Below, in pieces: positions 2,093 through 30,415 of a stretch of 43,011 nt of DNA. The stretch lies in the NCBI GenBank assembly GCA_964495475.1, contig CAZBVY010000002.1, positions 1 through 43,011 on the forward strand. Direction: 5' to 3'. The first letter of the stretch is position 1; the number at the start of each line of letters is the position of its first letter. The stretch is from an uncultured Pseudomonadales bacterium. Its GTDB lineage: Bacteria; Patescibacteriota; Microgenomatia; UBA1400; PJMF01. A model generated the notes under the pieces. That model was not told where the DNA came from. It saw only the letters and a list, made by a program, of their open reading frames with translations, and did no database searches. Made by a program: the position numbers and the translations under genes.

Positions 2093-2602
2093 ATGAGTAA
2101 AATCGTTAAAGTTAATGATTTGATGCAGAATAATTACTCTTATATTTTAACTCAAAAAGAGGGTCAAAATTTTCATCCTGATTTTAAACCAGAATTAAGT
2201 CCCGAAGAAATGCTTAAAATGGGTGTTTTTGGTGGAAAATACATGACGGATTGTAAAGATGAATTTCCGAAAAGTTGGTTTAAGGAAGCTAAGCTTTGTC
2301 ATGAATTTCATAATCCTAAATTAAATTTTTTTAAAGTTAATGCCAGTCAGCCTTTATCAGTTTGGCAGAAAAAAGGATGGATTTATAAAAATGATCCTCG
2401 TGGTTGGTTTCAATGGTATTGTCGTTATTTTATGGGTCGTCGTTTAATTGATGGAGAAGATGAGCGTCAAATAAAAAGATGGAAAATGTTTCGTCGACAT
2501 TTAGTCCAAGTCGAATACAATTGTATGCCTGGAGACTTCTCTTGTCGCAAAGTACAACGCCAAGCCTTACTTCATTGGGCTTATGATAGTCGAGCTATTT
2601 AA
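2093..2602 (+). CDS. Conserved hypothetical protein (W/R-rich core DPRGWFQWYCRYFMGRR)
   Basis: 169-aa ORF with an ATG start, 20 nt after the ATP-grasp gene on the same strand. I cannot assign a family. Confidence 0.6.
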   Translation: MSKIVKVNDLMQNNYSYILTQKEGQNFHPDFKPELSPEEMLKMGVFGGKYMTDCKDEFPKSWFKEAKLCHEFHNPKLNFFKVNASQPLSVWQKKGWIYKNDPRGWFQWYCRYFMGRRLIDGEDERQIKRWKMFRRHLVQVEYNCMPGDFSCRKVQRQALLHWAYDSRAI

Positions 2603-2606
2603 CTTT

Positions 2607-4364
2607 TTATTTAACCGTCACACTTTTAGCTAAATTTCTTGGTTTGTCTGGATCTAATTTTTTAAGCAAAGCAATCTCATAAGTTAGTAATTGAGCGACA
2701 ATAATACTACTCAAATTAACAAACTTTTCTGCTTGTGGAAGCTTAATGAAGAAATCAAAAATCTCTTCATTTTTTGTAGCAATACCAATTATTTTGGCAC
2801 CTCTAGCTTTAACTTCATGAGCACTAGAAAGCATATTTTCTCTGTTTGTTTTATTTAACAAACAGATTACTGGTGTTTCTTTTTCAATTAAGGCAATAAC
2901 ACCATGTTTAAGTTCACCAGCGCTAAAACCTTCGGCGTGAAGATAAGAAACTTCCTTGATTTTAAGCGCAAATTCCAGAGCACTGGCCAAGAGCTGCTCG
3001 CGCCCAAGAATATATAAATCATTTTTTTGACTAAGTAACTTAGCAGTTTTTTTAATGTCATTCATGATTTTTTTGTTGGCAAACCAGTCGGTTAATTGTT
3101 TAGAAAAATTCTCAATCTCTTTTTTAAATGAGAAATTTTTATTTTCCAAATAACTGGATAAGGCCATGCCAAAAAGCATGTGCCCAGTTAAGGCCTTAGT
3201 GCTGGCGACTCCAATTTCTGCCCCCACGTTAAGGGGATAGGCGATATCAGCCATGTTCATTAAAGTTGACGCAGGCATATTAACCACTGAAATAATGAAA
3301 ACACCCTTAGCCTTCATCTGTTCTACAGCCTCAATGGTATCGGCTGTTTCACCACTTTGACTAAGTATAATAGCTAGATCTTGTTTGCTAAAATCTTGCA
3401 CAAAATCGGTGTAGTCATAGGCGGGGACATGATAAATATTTTGTTTATTTGCTCTCAGGTGAGAAACAATACTTAGAGCTGCATAGCTCGCTGAGCCTGC
3501 ACCAACCACATAGATATTTCTTGATATTTCAATTTTCTTTGCAATTTTCTCAAATAATTCTTCACTTTTATCCAATACTTTTATGAAGCTTTCTTTTTGT
3601 TCATAAATTTCTTTTAACATAAAATGAGCATAATGACCTTTATCTATTTCTAAAGCCTGTTGGTTCATCCTATGGAAAGATAGTTTTTTAGTGGTCAAAT
3701 CTTTTACTTGATAAACCTGAATATTTTTCCCATCAAAATGAACGATTTCTTGATTTTCAATGACGTAGTAATTTTTAGCATCATGACTCATTGAAGCTAA
3801 ATCAGAAGAGAAAAAGTAATTATTTCTCTCACCTTGTCCAACTATCAGAGGTGAACCTTGACGATATGCCCACACTTCACCATTTTTAGTTAATAAAAGA
3901 ATGGTGTTGCGACCGGCCATTTTTTTGATTACTTTAGCAAATTGTTTTAGCTCAATTTTTTCTTGACATTCTTTTTCCAACAGAGCGACAATTACTTCAG
4001 TATCGGTTTCTGTTTGAAATTTATAGTCATTTTTCTGCAACCCAGTTTTTAATTCTTGGTAATTTTCCAGAACACCATTTTGTACTAAGGCAAAATTACC
4101 ATTTTGTGCAAGGTGTGGATGAGCATTCTTTTTTGTTACTCCACCGTGAGTAGCCCAGCGGGTATGACCAATGGCATTATTGCTATTGGCAAGTTTTAAT
4201 TTATTAATCAGACTGATTTTACCAACATGTTTTTCAATCTTTATTTTTTTATTGGCAATTGCAATACCCCACGAATCGTAACCACGATATTCAATTCTTT
4301 TAAGTCCTTCTAAAACTTTAGTAGTTGCGTCAAAATTGCCCAAACAGGCATAGATACCACACAT
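2607..4364 (-). CDS. glmS: Glutamine--fructose-6-phosphate aminotransferase (isomerizing)
   Basis: N-terminal MCGI (class II amidotransferase catalytic Cys2), two SIS-domain regions, C-terminal LAKSVTVK, 585 aa. Confidence 0.95.
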   Translation of the reverse strand: MCGIYACLGNFDATTKVLEGLKRIEYRGYDSWGIAIANKKIKIEKHVGKISLINKLKLANSNNAIGHTRWATHGGVTKKNAHPHLAQNGNFALVQNGVLENYQELKTGLQKNDYKFQTETDTEVIVALLEKECQEKIELKQFAKVIKKMAGRNTILLLTKNGEVWAYRQGSPLIVGQGERNNYFFSSDLASMSHDAKNYYVIENQEIVHFDGKNIQVYQVKDLTTKKLSFHRMNQQALEIDKGHYAHFMLKEIYEQKESFIKVLDKSEELFEKIAKKIEISRNIYVVGAGSASYAALSIVSHLRANKQNIYHVPAYDYTDFVQDFSKQDLAIILSQSGETADTIEAVEQMKAKGVFIISVVNMPASTLMNMADIAYPLNVGAEIGVASTKALTGHMLFGMALSSYLENKNFSFKKEIENFSKQLTDWFANKKIMNDIKKTAKLLSQKNDLYILGREQLLASALEFALKIKEVSYLHAEGFSAGELKHGVIALIEKETPVICLLNKTNRENMLSSAHEVKARGAKIIGIATKNEEIFDFFIKLPQAEKFVNLSSIIVAQLLTYEIALLKKLDPDKPRNLAKSVTVK

Positions 4365-15216: not shown

Positions 15217-15291
15217 GCACCCATAGCTCAGTCTGGATAGAGCGTTTGTTTGCGGAACAAAAGATCGTGCGTTCGAATCGCACTGGGTGCA
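15217..15291 (+). tRNA. tRNA-Arg, anticodon GCG
   Basis: Hand-folded cloverleaf. Acceptor gcaccca/tgggtgc; D stem gctc/gagc with A20 in the loop; anticodon stem tttgt/acaaa with loop ttGCGga; T arm gtgcg-ttcgaat-cgcac; discriminator a. No encoded CCA. Confidence 0.85.
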
Positions 15292-15319
15292 CAGTATAAA
15301 TATAAAGTGAAAGGAAGAC

Positions 15320-15600: not shown

Positions 15601-15682
15601 GGAAGGGTCGCATAGTGGCTATTGCATCAGCCTCGAAAACTGACGCCTTCGGGCACCGCGGGTTCAAGTCCCGCCCCTTCCG
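15601..15682 (+). tRNA. tRNA-Ser, anticodon CGA
   Basis: Acceptor ggaaggg/cccttcc; anticodon loop ctCGAaa; long variable arm with gcc-ttcg-ggc hairpin (class II tRNA); T arm gcggg-ttcaagt-cccgc; discriminator g. The 31:39 pair is a C-A mismatch. Confidence 0.85.
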
Positions 15683-15749
15683 CCGATTAAATTGCTTTTA
15701 GGAATAAAATCTAAACTCAAATTGTTTGAAATTTTTTAGAATGTTTTTT

Positions 15750-22589: not shown

Positions 22590-23024
22590 ATGACTAAAAA
22601 TATTAATAAACTTGTCAGTTTTATATTTTTTTTGTTAATTGTCGGAGTGTTGTTATTACGTCAACCTAAAATTCGTGAATTATTTTTTAATGACGCAATA
22701 CCAGCAACAGAAACTAATCCTAGTATCGCTCCTTCTGCTCAATTAGAGTTTCAAGTTGGCGAGAGTAATTCTCAAAAAGATTATCAATTTGTTGCCACCA
22801 GCTCTGGTCAAAATGCTTTAGAGCTAGTTGAAAGTCGGGTAGAATTAAGCCTTAAAAAATATGATTTTGGAGTGATGATTGAAGGAGTAAATGGTTTAAT
22901 GGCAGATAATAAGAATTATTGGGCAGTTTATCAGAATGGCGAATATGCTCAAACTGGTATTGCTCAAATTGAATTACAAAAAAATGATAAGATCGAGCTT
23001 AAATATGAAGAAATCACTTATTAG
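22590..23024 (+). CDS. Secreted/anchored DUF4430-domain protein (possible corrinoid-binding fold)
   Basis: N-terminal TM/signal anchor and a C-terminal GVMIEGVNGL...YWAVYQNGEYAQTGIAQIELQKNDKIELKYE, typical of DUF4430 as I recall it. Confidence 0.65.
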   Translation: MTKNINKLVSFIFFLLIVGVLLLRQPKIRELFFNDAIPATETNPSIAPSAQLEFQVGESNSQKDYQFVATSSGQNALELVESRVELSLKKYDFGVMIEGVNGLMADNKNYWAVYQNGEYAQTGIAQIELQKNDKIELKYEEITY

Positions 23025-23487
23025 TTTAAGTGGGGCAATCCTAACCTATATCTCTAGGTTTAGTTTTTTGCCAGCTAATATTTCTCCACTAGGAGCTTAT
23101 GGATTTTTTGGTGGAAACTTATTGTTTTATTTTTTATCCATTCTAGCTTTTGATTTTTTCAAAGGTGGTTTTTATCAAGGATTTTTGTGGACTTATCTTG
23201 GTTTTGCTGCTTATCCTTTTTTTGCCTTTTTAGCCCGTAAGTTTTCTAAGAAGCAGTGGATATTTTTACCGATGGCTTCTTTTAGTTTTTTTCTACTTTC
23301 CAATTTTGGAGTCTTTTTAGCCTGGTATGATCATAGTTGGCAAGGATTTCTAACTTGTTATGTGTTGGCTCTGCCGTTTTATAGTCGCACACTGCTTGGC
23401 GATTTATTTTTTGGTTATGGCTTTTTATTGCTTAAAAAATTGCATCAAATTGCTTTTTTACGCTCCTCGCGCTATAATGTCCTATAA
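23005..23487 (+). CDS. Polytopic membrane protein, DUF6580/ECF S-component-like
   Basis: LPANISPLGAYGFFGG motif and 5-6 TM segments. The start ATG 23005 overlaps the end of the DUF4430 gene. The family call is from memory only. Confidence 0.5.
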   Translation: MKKSLISLSGAILTYISRFSFLPANISPLGAYGFFGGNLLFYFLSILAFDFFKGGFYQGFLWTYLGFAAYPFFAFLARKFSKKQWIFLPMASFSFFLLSNFGVFLAWYDHSWQGFLTCYVLALPFYSRTLLGDLFFGYGFLLLKKLHQIAFLRSSRYNVL

Positions 23488-24311
23488 TGTTTAAGAAAAA
23501 GACTGGGATTAAGCTTTACAAAAAAGCTCCCACCAAATTTCTTTTGAAGAAAGCACATAGCCTGCAAAGATTGGCTTTGTTTTCTTTTGTTTTGAGTTTG
23601 CTTTTTATTTTTTTTAGTAATCCTTTTACTGCTTATGAGCAAGTTAAAAACTTGCCAAGTAAAACTAGTGAGATTAAACAAATAGTAACTAGTATTCCTG
23701 CCTTTATTAAAGTTTTTCCAGAGGAAGCTGAAAAAAATAGTTTTGCTTTTTTTGATTGGACTAAAGCACAATTAGATAATTCTTGGCCAATTTTTGCTAA
23801 AGAATCAAACTCAAATGCAGATAAAGAAGCCGGTCAAAGTGCTGTTGCGGAAATTACTCCAGTTAAAGATTATGAATCTTTGCCATTTTTTATTGAAATT
23901 CCCAAATTGAATTTATATGAAAAAGTGCAAGCTAACGTCAATCCCAACGAGGTTAAAGAATATCAAATCGCTTTAGAAGAAGGTGTAGCTCACGCTTTAA
24001 ACTCAGGTTTTCCTGGAGAAAATAAATTAATTTATATTTTTGGTCACTCTACTGATGGAGCCTGGAATGTAGAGGCTTTTAATGCAGTTTTTTATCAAAT
24101 TAAAGATTTAGTTGCTGGCGATCAAATCATTTTGCATTTGGGTGAGGAAAAATTTGTGTATCAGGTAAGTGAACAAAATGTAGTTAAGGGAAACGAAATT
24201 AATTTTGTTAATGATCGTCAGGATCAAAATATATTGCTTTTGCAAACTTGTTGGCCTCCAGGAACTTCTTGGCAAAGACTTTTTATTAGTGCGATTCCAG
24301 TTGCTTTATAA
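23487..24311 (+). CDS. Sortase (transpeptidase)
   Basis: N-terminal TM anchor, catalytic His context YIFGHS, active-site LLLQTCWPPG (TLxTC-type) and a downstream Arg (WQRLF). The start overlaps the previous stop (TAATG). Confidence 0.8.
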   Translation: MFKKKTGIKLYKKAPTKFLLKKAHSLQRLALFSFVLSLLFIFFSNPFTAYEQVKNLPSKTSEIKQIVTSIPAFIKVFPEEAEKNSFAFFDWTKAQLDNSWPIFAKESNSNADKEAGQSAVAEITPVKDYESLPFFIEIPKLNLYEKVQANVNPNEVKEYQIALEEGVAHALNSGFPGENKLIYIFGHSTDGAWNVEAFNAVFYQIKDLVAGDQIILHLGEEKFVYQVSEQNVVKGNEINFVNDRQDQNILLLQTCWPPGTSWQRLFISAIPVAL

Positions 24312-24331
24312 ACTTACAACATCCCATAATA

Positions 24332-24360
24332 TTGACAATTTACAATTATAAATATATAAT
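24332..24360 (+). promoter_or_regulatory. Strong sigma70-type promoter of the sortase-substrate gene
   Basis: TTGACA (24332-24337), 17-nt spacer, TATAAT (24355-24360). ATG 24369 lies 8 nt downstream (leaderless geometry). The upstream 18-mer atcccataatattgacaa is repeated exactly at 25139-25156. Confidence 0.55.
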
Positions 24361-24368
24361 ACTTGTTC

Positions 24369-25061
24369 ATGAGACCTAATATGAAAAAAACAATCTCTTA
24401 CTTACTAATAGTTACTGGCTTCTTTTTGTTCTTTGTGAACTTAGCCAATGCTAAAGAATGCCACACCGTTTATGGTGGAGGTGAAGTTTGCGAAACTGGT
24501 GATTTGAGTTTAGATAAAAAAGTTTTCAATCCAGAAACCAATGAATATTGGGATAATATTGATGCCAAAGATTATACTTTTGCTCCTGGTGAAGAAGTTA
24601 AATTCAAATTACGTGTACAAAATACTTCCGATGTTAAAGTTGACAGCGTCAACATCAACGATGATTTTGATCGTTTAGATGATTACATGATTTATGTTAG
24701 TAGTGACAGAGGTGATTATCGTGCTGAAGTTACCGATCACAAGGTTAAATTTGGTTTAGGTGGACTTAATCCTGATGAAAGTGTAACCGTTTATTTTGTA
24801 GCTCGTTTTAAAAATGCAGGTGAATTGCCAGTAGGTACTACTTGTATTACTAATTCCGCTCATGTTTATTCTCACATCGATTCTATTAGTGATAATGACA
24901 GTGCTAGTTTCTGCGTAGCTACTGAAAGTGGCAAAATTGTTAGCAAAACCACTCCAGCCACTGGTTTTGATTTAAGCACAATTTTAACTTTAGAAGCTTT
25001 AGCTTTTGCTGGTCTTGGTTTTTTAGCTTGGAAAAAAGCTAGAGTTATTGTTAAAAAATAA
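24369..25061 (+). CDS. Cell-surface protein with C-terminal sortase sorting signal
   Basis: Signal peptide ...FFVNLANA and a beta-rich DUF11/CARDB-like body. The C-terminus is TPATG (24951-24965), then a hydrophobic stretch, then KKARVIVKK. The start could be 24369 or 24381; the track gives TTG 24363. Confidence 0.75.
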   Translation: MRPNMKKTISYLLIVTGFFLFFVNLANAKECHTVYGGGEVCETGDLSLDKKVFNPETNEYWDNIDAKDYTFAPGEEVKFKLRVQNTSDVKVDSVNINDDFDRLDDYMIYVSSDRGDYRAEVTDHKVKFGLGGLNPDESVTVYFVARFKNAGELPVGTTCITNSAHVYSHIDSISDNDSASFCVATESGKIVSKTTPATGFDLSTILTLEALAFAGLGFLAWKKARVIVKK

Positions 25062-25083
25062 TTTTTAAATTTTGAAATTTAAA

Positions 25084-25122
25084 CCCCGCTTTACAAGTTT
25101 TGTAGGCGGGGATTTTGTTTTT
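25084..25122 (+). terminator. Rho-independent terminator
   Basis: Long hairpin ccccgcttTACAAgttTTGTAggcgggg (25084-25111) followed by attttgtttttt. Confidence 0.8.
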
Positions 25123-25149
25123 TAAAGAGCTCAAAACTATCCCATAATA

Positions 25150-25178
25150 TTGACAAAAATGACTTATAGTGATATACT
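25150..25178 (+). promoter_or_regulatory. Strong sigma70-type promoter with no ORF behind it
   Basis: TTGACA (25150-25155), 17-nt spacer ending in TGa (extended -10), TATACT (25173-25178). It shares the exact 18-mer with the 24.3-kb promoter. Confidence 0.55.
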
Positions 25179-25184
25179 TTGTAT

Positions 25185-25621
25185 TAGTTATGTGAGGAAT
25201 GGCTTAACTAAAAATTACACAATTTGATTTTTCCTCATTTAACTGACAGCTAAACTGTCTTAACATTTTTGGCAGAAAAAAGGTTTCTGACTACTTGTTT
25301 ATTCACCATTCCGAATAGACGATAAGTCGTCAGAAGCCTCCTTTCTGCTCGAAAGAGTAGAAAAAGGAACTTTTGAAAGAGGAATTGCTTGAGTAGATTT
25401 GCTCTACAATTAGCGATTAAAATCAGACAAAAGTGCACCTTAACAATTGGAGGAAAATGCCTGAAGCATTTAGGTCCAGCTTTTGTGGAAATCATTTTTG
25501 ACTTATTGTGTATTTTATAAATGGTTTCTAAAAAAGCTGGCCCTTCGTGCCGAAAGGCAAAGGACGAGTCGGTGACCACTAACGCTTAGTGGAATTTCGC
25601 GCATATAAGGAGAAGAATCTC
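25185..25621 (+). ncRNA. ORF-free, hairpin-rich transcript or long 5' leader (unclassified)
   Basis: The track has no forward ORF between 25062 and 25588. Hand-found helices are:
- 25187-25199 with 25231-25243 (13 positions: one mismatch, one GU);
- 25282-25291 with 25329-25338 (10 bp), enclosing hairpins tattc/gaata and gac-gataa-gtc;
- 25340-25367 with a GAAA tetraloop;
- 25427-25433 with 25480-25486;
- 25542-25563 with a GAAA tetraloop;
- 25576-25592 (7 bp).
The boundaries are guesses. Confidence 0.4.
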
Positions 25622-26188
25622 ATGCGTAAAAATGTTTTGCTCGTTGTATTCGTATTCGTTTTGGCGAGTTTACTCGCCGCCTGTGGTGCGCAAGCGCCTG
25701 CAGGTACCGCTACTGTAGTTCCGACCCAAACAGCTCGGGTAGAAGTGGTTGTTGTAACTGCTACTCCGGCGGCCACTGAGGCTGTCGTAGTATCTACCCC
25801 CGTACCAACTACCGTGGTAGCACCAGTTGTTACGAATAGCTTGGTTAATCCCGAGCTGTTCGACGCTGGTGAAGATCCGGCGGGAGAGGCCGATCCTGGT
25901 CTCTTTGACATTGGTGTAAATGCCAATCAGTTGGGCATCGTTTTCGGTTGGGACCTTTCTTGGGGTGAAAACTCTATTAAAGGCGAAGGATGCGAAATTG
26001 TAGTACTGTCTGGTGGATGGTACGAAAATTTCAAAATCCTTGACGGCAGATATGAAATTTATGATTTGCCTTCATCCGATATCGATGGTTGGACAAAAGT
26101 CCTCGTCGAACAGCGGGTGGCTGAACAAGCTGCTCACTACGGATGTTCTGCCGACGCTGTCCCCCCAGTTTGGGAGGGCGGCGAATAG
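25622..26188 (+). CDS. Lipoprotein with T/V/P/A-rich linker, compositionally foreign
   Basis: SD aaggaga 8 nt upstream of the ATG. Signal peptide plus lipobox MRKNVLLVVFVFVLASLLAAC, then a low-complexity linker TATVVPTQTARVEVVVVTATPAATEAVVVSTPVPTTVVAPVV and a small globular C-terminal domain. GC-rich codons (GCG, CCG, CGG) are unlike the neighbours. Confidence 0.75.
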   Translation: MRKNVLLVVFVFVLASLLAACGAQAPAGTATVVPTQTARVEVVVVTATPAATEAVVVSTPVPTTVVAPVVTNSLVNPELFDAGEDPAGEADPGLFDIGVNANQLGIVFGWDLSWGENSIKGEGCEIVVLSGGWYENFKILDGRYEIYDLPSSDIDGWTKVLVEQRVAEQAAHYGCSADAVPPVWEGGE

Positions 26189-26208
26189 CCGTCCTCGATC
26201 CTCCAATT

Positions 26209-26290
26209 CCCGCGAGTCTTCAAAAGCTCGCGGGAAACCTTAAGTTCATAATAATATTAAAGATTGTGAGTTTAAGGTTTCTTGTTTTTT
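26209..26290 (+). terminator. Terminator-like region (two hairpins, second followed by a T-run)
   Basis: The first hairpin is cccgcgag-N10-ctcgcggg (26209-26234). The second pairs gaaaccttaa (26234-26243) with ttaaggtttc (26272-26281) and is followed by ttgtttttt. Confidence 0.4.
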
Positions 26291-26295
26291 AAAAT

Positions 26296-27162
26296 ATGAA
26301 AACTGTAAAAGAAAAAACATTAGTTTCAATTCTAATGCCTGTTTATAATGCTGAGGAATATCTCAGCAAGACATTAGAAAGTATTAAATCTCAAACATAT
26401 CAAAATTGGGAATTGTTCGCTATTGACGACTGGTCAACTGATCGATCTTATGAGATTTTATTAAATTTTGCTAAAAAAGACAAAAGAGTTAAGGTCTATA
26501 GAAATGGTAAGCATCGTGGAGTTGCTGGAGCCGCCAATTTGGCCTTATCAATGATTAAGAGTAACTATGTAGCTCGTATGGACGCTGACGATCTAATGCA
26601 TCCTGAGAGAATTAGTAAACAACTAAGATTTTTAAAAGAAAATCCAAGCACCGTAGTTGTTGGTTCACAATGTGTTTTAATTGATAAAGATGGTCAAAAA
26701 ATTGGTGAAAAACAGTTTCCAATGAGTAATGATGAAATCATGAAGATGATTTTTCGCTCAATTCCTATCCAACAGCCTTCCATGATGATTAATCGAGGTT
26801 TATTACCAAAAGATTTTATTGCTTATGATCAAAATAAAAATACTGCTGAAGAGGTGGAGTTATTGTTTAAGCTTTTTAAATATGGAGAAGCTGGTAATTT
26901 ACCTGATTTTTTGCACTTTTATCGTTTACATGATAAAAATACTTCTCTTAAAGATCCAAAAAAAACATTTTATTTAACATTTTTAACACGTTTAAAATAT
27001 GCCCATGAAGCTAGTCTTATTGATTTACTCTTTAATTTTTTACAATTAATAGTTGTTTTTATTTTACCTAAAAAATTAATTTTTCCTTTATATAATTTGT
27101 GGCGTAATAATAAATTGTTAAATCTAAGTGTTCCTTCCCTTGTTCGCCTTTTCAAAATATAA
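26296..27162 (+). CDS. Glycosyltransferase family 2
   Basis: VSILMPVYNAEEYL, WELFAIDDWSTD and ARMDADD (DxD) motifs. Confidence 0.88.
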   Translation: MKTVKEKTLVSILMPVYNAEEYLSKTLESIKSQTYQNWELFAIDDWSTDRSYEILLNFAKKDKRVKVYRNGKHRGVAGAANLALSMIKSNYVARMDADDLMHPERISKQLRFLKENPSTVVVGSQCVLIDKDGQKIGEKQFPMSNDEIMKMIFRSIPIQQPSMMINRGLLPKDFIAYDQNKNTAEEVELLFKLFKYGEAGNLPDFLHFYRLHDKNTSLKDPKKTFYLTFLTRLKYAHEASLIDLLFNFLQLIVVFILPKKLIFPLYNLWRNNKLLNLSVPSLVRLFKI

Positions 27163-27172
27163 TCTAATATAG

Positions 27173-30100
27173 ATGACATCTATAAATAGGTTTATTTTTC
27201 CGTTTTTGTTGATGATTCTTGTTTGCATTCTTTTGTTGTCAAACTTTAATCTTGATACTTTTTTAGTTGGCTGGGATAACCTACAAACAGATTTAAGTGC
27301 AACTCTTAATCTTGAAAGAGCCCTAAATGTTTCTTGGCAAGAATATCAAGGACTTGGATTACTTGGAGGAATGGGACATGGAGCTGATTTAATTCGTCAA
27401 ATAATACTGATTCCTTTTTCTCTAGTTTTAAATCAAAATTTATTACGATATTTTTGGAATTTTATTGCTCTGATTGTTGGAGTTTTGGGTTCTTATTCAC
27501 TTTTTGTTTATTTGACAAAAAATAGACCAGCTTCTTTTTTGGGAGCTTGTTTTTATCTTTTAAATATTGGCACAGTTCAAAATTTTTATGTTACTTTTGA
27601 ACCGTTTTCTTCTTTTTTTGCGTTTTTCCCATGGCTAATTTACTATTTGTTTAAATATTTAAATCAACCCAATAAAAAGACTTTGCTTTTATTTGCCTTG
27701 TTTTCTTTATTGGGCACGAGCTTTGCTTATGTGCAGACTGTTTTTTTAGTTTATTCAATTTTATTGCTAATCATTTTATTATTTTATGTTTTTAAAAAAG
27801 AATTTATTTCTAAAAAAGAAAAGACTATTAATTCTTTAAAAATTTTAATAATAGTTTTTCTCGCAAATGCTTTTTGGCTTTTACCAGTATCGATTTTTAC
27901 TTTAAAAAATAGTGACATAGCCATTAATGCCAAAGGCAACTTAATGACCACTGAGTCTGTGTTTTTGCGTAATAATAAATTTGGCAATATTTATGACCTG
28001 ATTCAACTAAAGGGCTATTGGTTTGATTTTACTGATTTTGACCAATGGGGAAATACAGTTTTTTTACTCGAACCTTGGAAAACTCACTTTCAAAATCCAT
28101 TAATTAATTTTACCTCTTTTGTTTATTTTGCTTTTCTATTATTAGGAATTGTCTATCTTTTCACCTTGAAAAAAACACCAAGCAAATTAATAAAATTTCA
28201 TTGGTTGTTTTTAATCTTATTTTTAACTTGTAGCTTTATTCTTCTTGGTTCTAATCCGCCTCTTGGATTTATTTATGATTTTTTACGTGAAAACATACCG
28301 CTTTTTGGTCAAATTTTTCGCTCAGCTTTTACTAAATGGATTGTTCCTTATAGTTTGTTTTACAGCTTATTACTGACTTTTGGCTTAGCTTTTGTTTTTT
28401 CAAAATTTAAAAACAAGTTTCTTCAATTGTTGTTCTCTTTGCTTTTCTTTATTTCATTAATATTTTATTCATGGCCTTCTTTTCAGGGTCATTTCTTTTA
28501 TGAAAGATTGCGAATAAAGATTCCAGAGGCTTATTTTGAACTTTTTAATTATTTTAAGTATGAAGTGCCAGCAAGCAGTCGTATTGCCAATTTACCTCAA
28601 CATAGTTTTTATGGTTGGCAGTGGAATAATTGGGGTTATAGAGGCTCTGGTTTCTTATGGTATGGCATCAAGCAACCCATTATGGATCGTGCTTTTGATG
28701 TTTGGAGCGAAGCAAATGAACGTTACTATTGGCAATTACAAACAGCTCTAGATAAAAAAGACGTGAAAATGTTAGAAAATATTTTCAGTCAATATGATGT
28801 TGATTATTTGTTATTAGATGCTTCGATTATTAATCGTAACACGATTAAACCGTTTGATTATCAAACACTTAAAGAATTATTGGCTAGCTCTAGCCGTCTA
28901 AATTTGGTTAAAGAGTTTGATTTTATTACTCTTTATAGCTTTGCTGATACGGAAAATAATCGTGAAAAAGATTTTATAAGTTTATATAAAGATTTACCTA
29001 TAATAAATAATTCTTATAAACATAGCTGGAGCGACCAGGCTTTTACTGATTTTCACGACTATTTGAGTGTTAATAAAAATAACGCAAAAAGTGCAGAAAT
29101 TATTTATCCTTTTGCTTCTTTGTTTACCAATCATTTGCAAAGCGAACTAGAATTTATGTTAACTGAAGATAATAATGCTTTTTACCTGAAAAGTTTAAAA
29201 GATCTATCAGATGAAGACCTAAATTTTAAAACAAAAGATTTATTGGTTGCAGAAAATTATTTGCCTTTTCAAGTCACTTGGACAACCAATAATCATCAGA
29301 CAAAATTTATTTTTAAGGCACTTTTACCAGAAATTTATTTAAATAAAGAACATTTTGTTTTTCCTTTAATTAAAGAAATTGTCTTAAATAGCACTGTTTG
29401 TCAAAATAGCGATAATTGTTTTTTAAATATTAATCACCAATTGCTTAACAAATTTACTCAAGATGGGCAATTAAATATTTTATTGTCGACTAAATTACGC
29501 AACACCATTGCACTTAGCAATCAAACTAAAATTGAATATTTTGATTATGCTTTTTTTGATTTACCATTTTTTGATTTACAAACTAAAAATATCGCTCTCG
29601 CAGAAAATTTTGAATTTATGGTTAAAATTCCAAAATTTTTATTACAACAAAATCTTTTAAAAACAGATTCAAATATAAATGAAGCTATAAATTGTCGACC
29701 TTTAAATAATGGAAACTACTCAAAAGAGAAAAAAGAAAATGAAAATTATTATCAAGCAATCAATACGAGTGTTTGTGATTATTTTTATTTAGAACAACTT
29801 AAACATAATTCAGCTTATATGTTTAAGTTAGATGTTCAAAATTTGAGTTCTATTCCTTTTGTTTTTGCCATTCAAACAGAAAGTTTAGGACGTAGTCCTT
29901 TAGAAACTTATTTAAATGACGGTATTAACTATCAAGTTTTGCCTCCTACCGAAAGTTTCAATCAGGGCTATACACTTTATCTATCTACCGACTCTTATGG
30001 TAAAGAAGTTAATCGTAATTTATTAAAATCAGCCGAGGTTTTTTATTGGCCATATAATTTTTTGACGAATATTACTTTGCAAAAAAATATTTCTCCTACT

Positions 30101-30415
30101 GAAATTGCCGAAATACCCACTTGTGACCTTGAGGTTCAGAAAAAAGCCCTGTGGTTCTATCAAATTAAACTATCTGATGATTGTAATGCCAAATACTTGA
30201 AACTTTCTCAAGCATATGATGATGGCTGGCTAGCTTTTAAAGAAGGAAAACTTTTAGATCATCAAAAAATTAATAATTGGACTAACGCCTGGATTTTAAG
30301 TGGTCAAGACAATAATTCCATTATCTATATTTTCTTTTGGCCACAATTATTAGAATACCTAGGAATGGGAGGAATATTTTTTATTGTATTTTTATGTCTC
30401 AAAATAAAGAATTAA
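27173..30415 (+). CDS. Large polytopic membrane protein (1080 aa), putative GT-C-type glycosyltransferase with a big extracytoplasmic C-terminal domain
   Basis: About 12-14 N-terminal TM segments over roughly 450 aa, a ~600-aa soluble region and a terminal TM. The architecture resembles AftD/YfhO-like GT-C enzymes, but I could verify no catalytic motif. Confidence 0.55.
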   Translation: MTSINRFIFPFLLMILVCILLLSNFNLDTFLVGWDNLQTDLSATLNLERALNVSWQEYQGLGLLGGMGHGADLIRQIILIPFSLVLNQNLLRYFWNFIALIVGVLGSYSLFVYLTKNRPASFLGACFYLLNIGTVQNFYVTFEPFSSFFAFFPWLIYYLFKYLNQPNKKTLLLFALFSLLGTSFAYVQTVFLVYSILLLIILLFYVFKKEFISKKEKTINSLKILIIVFLANAFWLLPVSIFTLKNSDIAINAKGNLMTTESVFLRNNKFGNIYDLIQLKGYWFDFTDFDQWGNTVFLLEPWKTHFQNPLINFTSFVYFAFLLLGIVYLFTLKKTPSKLIKFHWLFLILFLTCSFILLGSNPPLGFIYDFLRENIPLFGQIFRSAFTKWIVPYSLFYSLLLTFGLAFVFSKFKNKFLQLLFSLLFFISLIFYSWPSFQGHFFYERLRIKIPEAYFELFNYFKYEVPASSRIANLPQHSFYGWQWNNWGYRGSGFLWYGIKQPIMDRAFDVWSEANERYYWQLQTALDKKDVKMLENIFSQYDVDYLLLDASIINRNTIKPFDYQTLKELLASSSRLNLVKEFDFITLYSFADTENNREKDFISLYKDLPIINNSYKHSWSDQAFTDFHDYLSVNKNNAKSAEIIYPFASLFTNHLQSELEFMLTEDNNAFYLKSLKDLSDEDLNFKTKDLLVAENYLPFQVTWTTNNHQTKFIFKALLPEIYLNKEHFVFPLIKEIVLNSTVCQNSDNCFLNINHQLLNKFTQDGQLNILLSTKLRNTIALSNQTKIEYFDYAFFDLPFFDLQTKNIALAENFEFMVKIPKFLLQQNLLKTDSNINEAINCRPLNNGNYSKEKKENENYYQAINTSVCDYFYLEQLKHNSAYMFKLDVQNLSSIPFVFAIQTESLGRSPLETYLNDGINYQVLPPTESFNQGYTLYLSTDSYGKEVNRNLLKSAEVFYWPYNFLTNITLQKNISPTEIAEIPTCDLEVQKKALWFYQIKLSDDCNAKYLKLSQAYDDGWLAFKEGKLLDHQKINNWTNAWILSGQDNNSIIYIFFWPQLLEYLGMGGIFFIVFLCLKIKN

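Follow-up and report, generated by a model that had tools for sequence, protein, structure and literature searches.

The window analysed here is a 43,011-nt stretch of DNA (contig CAZBVY010000002.1 of GenBank assembly GCA_964495475.1) from an uncultured Pseudomonadales bacterium, placed by GTDB in the lineage Patescibacteriota, Microgenomatia, UBA1400, PJMF01. A gene-free segment separates a CLIPPER/DUF11 sortase-substrate gene from a gene for an exported lipoprotein. It begins at a promoter and ends at the Shine-Dalgarno (SD) sequence of the lipoprotein gene, which is followed on the same strand by genes for a GT2 glycosyltransferase and a large membrane protein (Table 1). A first-pass annotation, made from the sequence alone, had described this segment as a duplicated strong promoter driving about 435 nt of highly structured RNA free of open reading frames (ORFs), and had offered three readings: a novel small RNA, a cis-regulatory leader of the lipoprotein gene, or a decayed gene. 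The best explanation of the comparative data is a previously undescribed family of large structured 5' leader RNAs, 350–500 nt in length, on the mRNA of an operon of Microgenomates-type Patescibacteria.

The lipoprotein encoded at 25622–26188 has 30 homolog clusters, and the homolog contigs share the gene order DUF6580, sortase, CLIPPER/DUF11 substrate, gap, lipoprotein, GT2 and ~1080-aa membrane protein. The gap between the CLIPPER/DUF11 and lipoprotein genes is gene-free, measures 420–680 nt and aligns between contigs. When 185,579 species genomes were scanned with a degenerate pattern built on the most conserved helix, 9 more true loci emerged, which carry the labels Pacebacteria, Woesebacteria or unclassified metagenome-assembled genome, and metagenomes added ~17 loci; chance matches were recognised by a missing promoter and a missing nhmmer match. 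Syntenic loci and pattern scans together gave 26 distinct leader homologs, referred to below by the L numbers of their loci. The L050 locus was reached through its large membrane protein, a homolog with 46% identity, and its leader matches the hidden Markov model of the leader core with an nhmmer E value of 5e-33. In L051, where the large protein is 37% identical, the leader is ~230 nt long and, judged by eye, apparently reduced. The Levybacteria locus L053 (33% identity) shares the gene order and bears, at the corresponding site, a different structured leader; its spacers at 2241–2701, before a small-protein gene, and at 3329–3645, before a GT1 gene, are apparently structured and GC-richer, and may represent a distant or analogous leader. 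Altogether, this promoter and a homologous leader are found at the corresponding place in ~30 related Microgenomates-type loci, and in every one the leader lies between the conserved promoter and the SD of the next gene.

The 18-mer ATCCCATAATATTGACAA, reported in the first-pass annotation as occurring twice, is indeed present in exactly two copies (24321–24338 and 25139–25156). Allowing up to 3 mismatches reveals no further site anywhere in the 43 kb, and two matches were found in 0 of 100 shuffles. The promoter boxes proposed at each copy were borne out as near-consensus sigma-70-type sites, and these are the two top promoter-like sites within 23000–27500. The leader promoter (TTGACA-17-TATACT with an extended TG, 25150–25178) scores 11/12, and its predicted transcription start is at ~25184–25186. 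The pattern ATCCYATAAYATTGACAA...TGATATACT is present in every leader homolog with upstream sequence retained, and the CLIPPER promoter module also precedes the CLIPPER gene in relatives. A recent duplication is ruled out, since each of the two genes has retained its copy throughout the family; what had been called a duplication is an old promoter module common to two transcription units in all relatives. The pairs compared were 24321–24360 and 25139–25178 of the window and the same pairs in L001–L049. Among the fetched loci, ATCCYATAAY-TTGACA was found only at the CLIPPER and leader promoters, plus one unassigned site in L036. The shared ATCCYATAAY element suggests that the surface protein and the leader operon may be co-regulated, and that either a common regulator or a special class of strong promoter is involved. 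Most lineages have a TGAC-N6-TGAC direct repeat inside the spacer of the leader promoter. In L004, an opposite-strand gene of the YhcG/DUF1016 type (2387–3322) is inserted between the CLIPPER gene and the leader promoter, and the promoter and leader are intact despite this insertion.

The hairpin at 25081–25123 is the putative end of the CLIPPER transcription unit. Its 15-nt loop is above the limit of the terminator scan, so the scan did not list it. No terminator-like site was found by the promoter/terminator scan on the + strand of 25180–25621. The separate small RNA is therefore disfavoured: it has a promoter but no terminator in that interval, and the SD directly follows the 3' hairpins. 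Of the three earlier readings, the fixed position between promoter and SD and the lack of a terminator between them favour the cis-regulatory leader.

A conserved multi-helix RNA on the + strand

Covariation was analysed in the 26 distinct leaders (alignment A3). RNAalifold predicted 65 pairs, 34 of which keep pairing via changes on both sides; the mean for shuffled alignments was 22.8, and partners slid out of register gave 12–17. Cells are paired in 94.7% of cases (shuffled mean 82.6%; slid partners 39–51%), 244 cells contain double changes (shuffled mean 86; slid partners 25–48) and the covariation score is 0.439 (shuffled mean 0.216; slid partners 0.07–0.12). None of 500 shuffles reached the observed value in any of these four measures. 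G-U predominates at several pairs across nearly all sequences and would read as A-C mismatches on the other strand, which places the RNA on the + strand. The region is thus a real structured RNA with a conserved multi-helix fold on that strand, and the novel structured RNA suspected earlier is supported by this covariation together with the lack of an Rfam match described below.

The predicted minimum free energy (MFE) of 25180–25625 is -143.7 kcal/mol, as compared with -98.1 +/- 6.3 for dinucleotide shuffles (z -7.2). The minus strand carries the complements of these helices and, as would be expected, also gives a low value (z -6.1). Distant leaders are equally structured (z -7.9 in L009 and -9.1 in L015). 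The leader core at 25262–25600 is 98.5, 97.1 and 89.3% identical to its counterparts in L003, L005 and L004, respectively; the corresponding values are 92.0, 91.9 and 86.3% for the sortase gene and 93.0, 92.3 and 82.7% for the CLIPPER gene.

The earlier descriptions of an ATG-TGA at the start of the transcript (25190–25195) and of an otherwise ORF-free forward strand both stand, the longest forward ORFs being only 43 and 30 aa. An ORF of 109 aa on the minus strand (25250–25579) had been missed. This ORF is the one point in favour of a decayed gene or non-functional spacer whose structure would stem from composition or chance. It has no Pfam match, and its longest stop-free stretch falls to 52–60 aa in close relatives, where neither strand holds a conserved ORF. 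Compensatory substitutions exceed the shuffle controls and the core is conserved above the flanking coding sequences. We consequently exclude a decayed gene or a minus-strand coding frame and find a non-functional spacer hardly credible.

The comparison with Rfam that had been proposed matched no family. At gathering threshold, Rfam 15 gave only two matches in the whole window, tRNA-Arg(GCG) at 15217–15292 and tRNA-Ser(CGA) at 15601–15684, which are also the sole ARAGORN matches. A permissive scan of 25000–25750 returned miRNA-precursor hairpins at best (~25 bits against thresholds of 80–100), and nine homologous loci returned 0 matches. A phage origin was rejected, as blastn of 25139–26295 found no match in phage records. 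Literature searches for a leader or noncoding RNA of this kind in Patescibacteria retrieved nothing relevant. A CsrA sponge was considered and dropped, since the ~8 GGA motifs counted by inspection in 446 nt are near the expectation from base composition.

The leader begins with a lineage-variable 5' module, which is missing from the ~350-nt short-form homologs. It is followed by the long stem P1/P1a, the GNRA-capped hairpin P2, a central domain that holds hairpin P3, and hairpins P4 to P7. P1/P1a comprises 23 pairs that are 94.9% paired, 14 of them changed on both sides, with lineage-specific compensations of P1 in L017, L036 and L051. P2 shows compensatory changes in L037/L048, L043, L015 and a subgroup in which the stem reads CUGCUUA-GNRA-UAAGCAG. 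The distance from strand beta of P1 to the UUAACA motif is 104–108 nt in 21 of 23 lineages. The closing helix of the central domain was obtained by group-wise folding and is only 71–88% paired when aligned across groups. P5 comprises 22 pairs that are 98.2% paired, with double changes in 6. P7 is replaced in distant subgroups by a GC-rich hairpin abutting the SD. Most lineages contain GGAGGA or AAGGAGG without a conserved ORF, and L010 has no internal GGAGG. A leader peptide starting at the internal SD-AUG was rejected, given a stop at codon 3 in L006, L013, L016 and L020 and no AUG in L015 and L017.

Most helices drawn by hand in the first-pass annotation reappear in this fold. The 25187–25199/25231–25243 helix (P0) is lineage-variable and covaries within the window's subgroup, the 25282–25291/25329–25338 helix (P1a) covaries strongly, and comparison supports both GAAA-capped hairpins (~25342–25363 and 25542–25563), the atgc-ctgaa-gcat hairpin (P4) and the hairpin at 25576–25592 (P7). 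Two proposals fell away. The three-way junction placed inside the 25282–25338 stem folds as one irregular hairpin, and the helix 25427–25433/25480–25486 conflicts with P5, which is 98% paired in 26 sequences; group-wise folding pairs 25428–25434 with 25369–75 instead.

Table 1 Positions of features at the leader locus, in window coordinates.
Feature	Position	Strand	Description
CLIPPER/DUF11 sortase-substrate gene promoter	24321–24360	+	ATCCCATAATA element, then TTGACA-17-TATAAT (24332–24360, 12/12)
Terminator-like hairpin CCCCGC/GCGGGG, then T-run	25081–25123	+	read from sequence
Leader promoter	25139–25178	+	ATCCCATAATA element; -35 TTGACA 25150–25155; extended -10 TG-n-TATACT 25170–25178
Lineage-variable 5' module	25179–25261	+	stem P0, hairpin 25245–25259, 5' element
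Stem P0	25187–25199 with 25231–25243	+	lineage-variable; covaries in window's subgroup
5' element GGAAUGG	25196–25202	+	can also pair with apical loop CCAUUCC 25306–25312
Long stem P1/P1a	25266–25348	+	alpha GGCAGAAA 25271–25278; beta UUUCUGC 25342–25348
Inner stem P1a	25282–25291 with 25329–25338	+	strong covariation
GNRA-capped hairpin P2	25342–25363	+	UUUCUGCUC-GAAA-GAGUAGAAA; re-uses beta, overlaps P1 by up to 5 nt
Central domain	25364–25445	+	closing helix, hairpin P3, invariant GCACCUUAACA (25435–25445)
Central-domain closing helix	AAGG 25364-67/CCUU 25438-41; ACUUUUG 25369-75/CAAAAGU 25428-34	+	group-wise folding
Two-part hairpin P3	25384–25417	+	helices 92–94% paired; double changes in 9/10 pairs
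Internal SD-like site	25449–25469	+	GGAGGA 25449-54 and AUG 25457, with hairpin P4
Hairpin P4 AUGCC-UGA-AGCAU	25457–25469	+	folding and alignment
Long hairpin P5	25472–25544	+	base GGUCCAGCUUUU/AAAAGCUGGNCC sequence-invariant; upper stem covaries; tip length varies
Hairpin P6 GCC-GAAA-GGC	25549–25558 (within 25542–25592)	+	covariation alignment
Conserved GACGAGUCGG	25563–25572	+	alignment
Hairpin P7	25576–25592	+	variants CCACUG/CAGUGG, CCAUUG/CAAUGG
Putative translation-initiation clamp	25599–25627	+	GCGCAU 25599–25604 with AUGCGU 25622–25627 (start and Arg codon); SD AAGGAG 25607–25612 in loop
Exported lipoprotein gene	25622–26188	+	188 aa, lipobox LAAC, GC-enriched, hyper-structured
Signal-peptide-region hairpins	25663–25678, 25680–25704	+	recurring in relatives
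Conserved structured spacer before GT2	26174–26295	+	hairpins and CCUCC motif
Hairpin across stop codon	26174–26196	+	spacer
Hairpin UCCCGCGAG/CUCGCGGGA	26208–26235	+	spacer
Long AU hairpin, then U-run	26236–26280; U-run 26285–26290	+	spacer
GT2 glycosyltransferase gene	26296–27162	+	Pfam PF00535
1080-aa polytopic membrane protein gene	27173–30415	+	AftD-like GT-C related (homolog domains, synteny)

Alternative pairings and the start codon

Strand beta (UCUGC with its flanks) is complementary both to alpha upstream, forming P1, and to gamma downstream, forming P2, in every lineage. The reduced form of L051 keeps the three strands as GGCAGGGAAG / CUUCUCUGCC / GGCAGAA. Both helices show compensation. 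For alpha:beta, column pair 186:278 is CG, UA or UG and column pair 190:274 is GC or AU, L036 has C-G where others have A-U, and the strands of L017 (GGGGUAAAGG and CCUUUACUCU) are wholly different yet complementary. For beta:gamma, C-G becomes U-A in L037 and L048, U-A becomes C-G in L043 and G-U becomes G-C in L015, L034 and L043, and one subgroup has re-made the stem. For the isolated domain, the minimum-energy structure is P1 in 9 of 11 lineages and P2 in a single lineage, and in the window its two conformers are ~2 kcal/mol apart. Full-length folds adopt P2 in L009 and the short-form group and P1 in L015.

The long forms contain a second either/or pairing, in which the 5' element has two matching partners, the 3' strand of P0 and the P1a apical loop. 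Its sequence is GGAAUGG for the window's group, L015 carries GAAGUGAAC and L017 carries GAAGUGAGC, and the energy of its duplex with the loop is -15 to -17 kcal/mol within subgroups versus -8 to -10 across them. We read the two either/or pairings as a candidate conformational switch. The first-pass annotation had suspected switch-like behaviour around 25245–25275; two mutually exclusive pairings are in fact conserved, but they are located elsewhere, and the ctgtc/ggcag alternative it had drawn is not conserved in relatives.

The SD lies immediately 3' of the last leader hairpin, and in 20 of 25 leaders the minimum-energy fold of the local sequence pairs the start codon. In most lineages a sequence RCGCAU just 5' of the SD is the exact complement of AUGCGY, which encodes Met-Arg. 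Lineages whose proteins start with MKR or MKK lack RCGCAU and have a UUUUCUC/GAGAAAA hairpin over the SD instead, and in L010 the AUG sits in a hairpin loop. This pairing of the start codon links the leader RNA to the coding sequence and suggests that it may control initiation.

An alternative reading is a true riboswitch. Its unusually large aptamer, made up of the conserved core, would bind a small molecule of envelope glycosylation (candidates are a nucleotide-sugar, a polyprenyl-phosphate-linked precursor or a second messenger), and the ligand would select P1 or P2 and thereby open or close the clamp. Consistent with such a sensor are the 5' untranslated region (UTR) position, the invariant unpaired motifs (GCACCUUAACA, AUUGCU and GACGAGUCGG), two conserved GNRA loops, a central domain fixed at 104–108 nt in 21 of 23 lineages, a pair of conserved helices that compete for one strand and the sequestered initiation region. 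However, no ligand can be inferred, no known riboswitch family in Rfam 15 matches, P1 encloses only a hairpin with a variable tip rather than the junction typical of aptamers, and the first downstream gene switches protein family between lineages, such that the regulated function is not obvious. We consider a riboswitch unlikely.

The first cistron and the downstream genes

The structured RNA does not end at the start codon. The lipoprotein gene has a GC content of 0.51 and a GC content at third codon positions (GC3) of 0.42, as compared with a GC3 of 0.20–0.23 in neighbouring genes, and this contrast is repeated in six other lineages. The gene and the following spacer (25622–26290) fold with z -10.7, whereas GT2 and CLIPPER pieces of the same length give ~-2. 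Besides the window, first genes were examined in L006, L007, L010 and L015–L018. With dinucleotide shuffles, the first coding sequence (CDS) yields z -5.9 to -13.8 in eight lineages versus +0.8 to -1.9 for neighbouring genes. The window's lipoprotein CDS gives z -5.9 with these shuffles and -6.3 with synonymous-codon shuffles, which preserve the protein, codon usage and GC3. In five lineages the synonymous-codon permutations fold 34–71 kcal/mol worse than the native sequence (z -6.3 to -14.4), and control genes yield z -1.0 to -2.1. Because the native folds surpass these permutations, the arrangement of synonymous sites is selected for RNA structure. Two hairpin types recur in the signal-peptide region: GGCGAG/CUCGCC, and CCUGY...RCAGG, in which the interior varies and specifies different peptides.

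The 188-aa lipoprotein has no Pfam family, and the protein in this slot varies by lineage, with at least 4 unrelated C-terminal domains, all with a lipobox or membrane anchor. Since the protein differs between lineages, the hyper-structure is a property of the slot rather than of a particular protein family, and the slot itself acts as a cassette whose content can be exchanged. This exchange was seen across L016, L018, L025, L029, L034, L037, L043, L048, L015 and L017, in which the leader, GT and GT-C genes stay in place. In comparison with L001 and L003, the Thr/Val/Pro/Ala-rich linker encoded at 25709–25841 is unalignable even with L001, to which identity is 98.4% upstream of the linker and 88% downstream. 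This break in the alignment indicates a putative recombination breakpoint or a hypervariable linker. A diversity-generating retroelement acting on the linker was set aside, as no reverse transcriptase was called in the fetched loci.

The spacer in front of GT2 (26189–26295) is 86–99% identical among relatives, even where the sortase is only 72% identical or unalignable, and its hairpins carry compensatory changes in L007 and L010. It matches the leader in conservation and may serve as a partial terminator or processing site. The selected structured RNA extends through the CDS to ~26290, and the real unit is ~1.1 kb in length (25139–26295). This whole unit of leader, CDS and 3' hairpins could be a dual-function RNA of a new, very large sensor or scaffold class, with a fold selected independently of the slot protein and superimposed on it. 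Examples would be a riboswitch that responds to an envelope-glycosylation precursor, or an RNA forming the core of a ribonucleoprotein at the membrane; we find this reading quite improbable.

Another reading is a stable noncoding RNA in its own right, processed or attached; in its favour, the leader persists although the protein encoded behind it changes among at least 4 families. Such an RNA might act in trans or in a membrane RNA-protein complex of the OLE type, with its gene position being secondary. The consensus promoter is typical of stable-RNA genes, the sequence is more conserved than the neighbouring proteins, and the complex fold with its GNRA loops and lineage-matched long-range loop contact fits this proposal. 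The window contains one + strand leader copy and the scans recovered one per locus or contig. On the other hand, neither a terminator nor a conserved 3' end precedes the SD, the last hairpin and clamp are tied to the sequence of the start codon, and the leader was never found away from this gene slot in the ~30 loci. A stable noncoding RNA is a doubtful alternative to the cis-acting leader.

The 1080-aa protein has no match in Pfam, NCBIfam or PDB. Some of its homologs carry PF11847 (AftD-like arabinofuranosyltransferase), PF10131 or PF14264, and the protein is probably a GT-C glycosyltransferase. Together with GT2, the operon probably performs extracytoplasmic glycosylation, for which the exported protein offers a plausible substrate in its Thr/Val/Pro-rich linker.

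Proposed function and relation to known systems

We propose, with a probability of roughly 0.6, that the leader exerts cis-acting conformational control over translation and/or mRNA stability. The leader would be co-transcribed with the gene behind it and would act in cis on the expression of that gene. Beta would pair with either alpha (P1) or gamma (the GNRA hairpin P2) and, in long forms, the 5' element would pair with either its neighbour (P0) or the P1a apical loop. The compact central domain would couple these conformers to the hairpin that clamps the start codon, and they would also be coupled to the access of ribosomes or RNases, for which the internal SD-like sites are candidate contacts. 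By this coupling the leader would set translation and/or the lifetime of the message. The likely product would be a long-lived, abundant first-cistron mRNA with reduced read-through into the glycosyltransferase genes. A metabolite, a protein, the ribosome or temperature could set the conformation. What was observed of an expression platform comprises the two conserved either/or pairings and the clamp in 20 of 25 leaders, with no terminator; their coupling is proposed.

Several points weigh against this proposal. The transcript ends and co-transcription are deduced from sequence features. The homologs were partly collected by pattern, so the columns of the pattern are invariant by construction, and the alignment holds ~10–12 independent lineages, such that the shuffle statistics overstate independence. 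Instead of a switch, the overlap of P1 and P2 could reflect a static junction that undergoes branch migration, and an alternative closing helix of domain 1, between the U-run and the A-rich 3' part of gamma, is possible. A long-range helix between the 5' flank of alpha, with its U-run, and the SD region reached -5.7 to -6.9 kcal/mol in five lineages but was not adopted, as the overall value for cognate combinations, -3.8, did not improve on that for non-cognate ones, -3.5. Finally, simple mRNA stabilisers need no 330 nt with invariant unpaired motifs, and because the leader exceeds such needs a more specific function is likely.

Patescibacteria have tiny genomes with little non-coding DNA, and to our knowledge almost nothing is known of their gene regulation. 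They nevertheless retain, in front of a locus for a surface protein and glycan assembly, a 350–500-nt leader that is conserved beyond the surrounding proteins. If the leader is a sensor, it would be a new and unusually large class of riboregulator for envelope biogenesis in uncultivated bacteria. The first cistron, in which synonymous sites maximise RNA structure in every lineage tested and with unrelated slot proteins, is a clean natural case that can be used to study the design of mRNA stability.

Among known systems, the OLE, ROOL, GOLLD and raiA-type RNAs resemble the leader in being several hundred nt long, ornately folded, equipped with GNRA loops and restricted to certain lineages, and OLE is also associated with membrane-protein genes. 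In contrast, the leader matches no Rfam model, abuts a ribosome-binding site and pairs with the start codon. Riboswitches and other Cis-reg leaders of Rfam share with it the position between promoter and start codon, covarying stems, invariant unpaired nucleotides, one strand common to two alternative helices and a sequestered initiation region. The present RNA differs from them in its size (~330–450 nt, above nearly all), in having no terminator-type platform, Rfam 15 match or identified ligand, and in a selected structure that runs on through the CDS.

The 5' UTR of ompA is an mRNA stabiliser, and the E. coli lpp mRNA is hairpin-rich and long-lived. The long 5' UTR of Lactobacillus slpA stabilises the mRNA of an envelope protein (PMC3666127), and in the STAB-SD of cry3A a non-initiating SD-like sequence binds the 30S subunit and blocks RNase J1 (PMC4113751). 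The leader shares with 5' UTR stabilisers a strong promoter, a long structured leader, an exported and probably abundant envelope protein and a stably folded message, and with STAB-SD the presence of SD-like sites far from the start codon (GGAGGA at 25449, and AAGGAG after P2 in most relatives). Whereas those stabilisers are short and simple, consisting of a 5' hairpin or one SD-like site without deep sequence conservation, the present leader has at least 8 conserved helices, invariant loops and alternative pairings, and stabilisation of the message is one candidate role for it.

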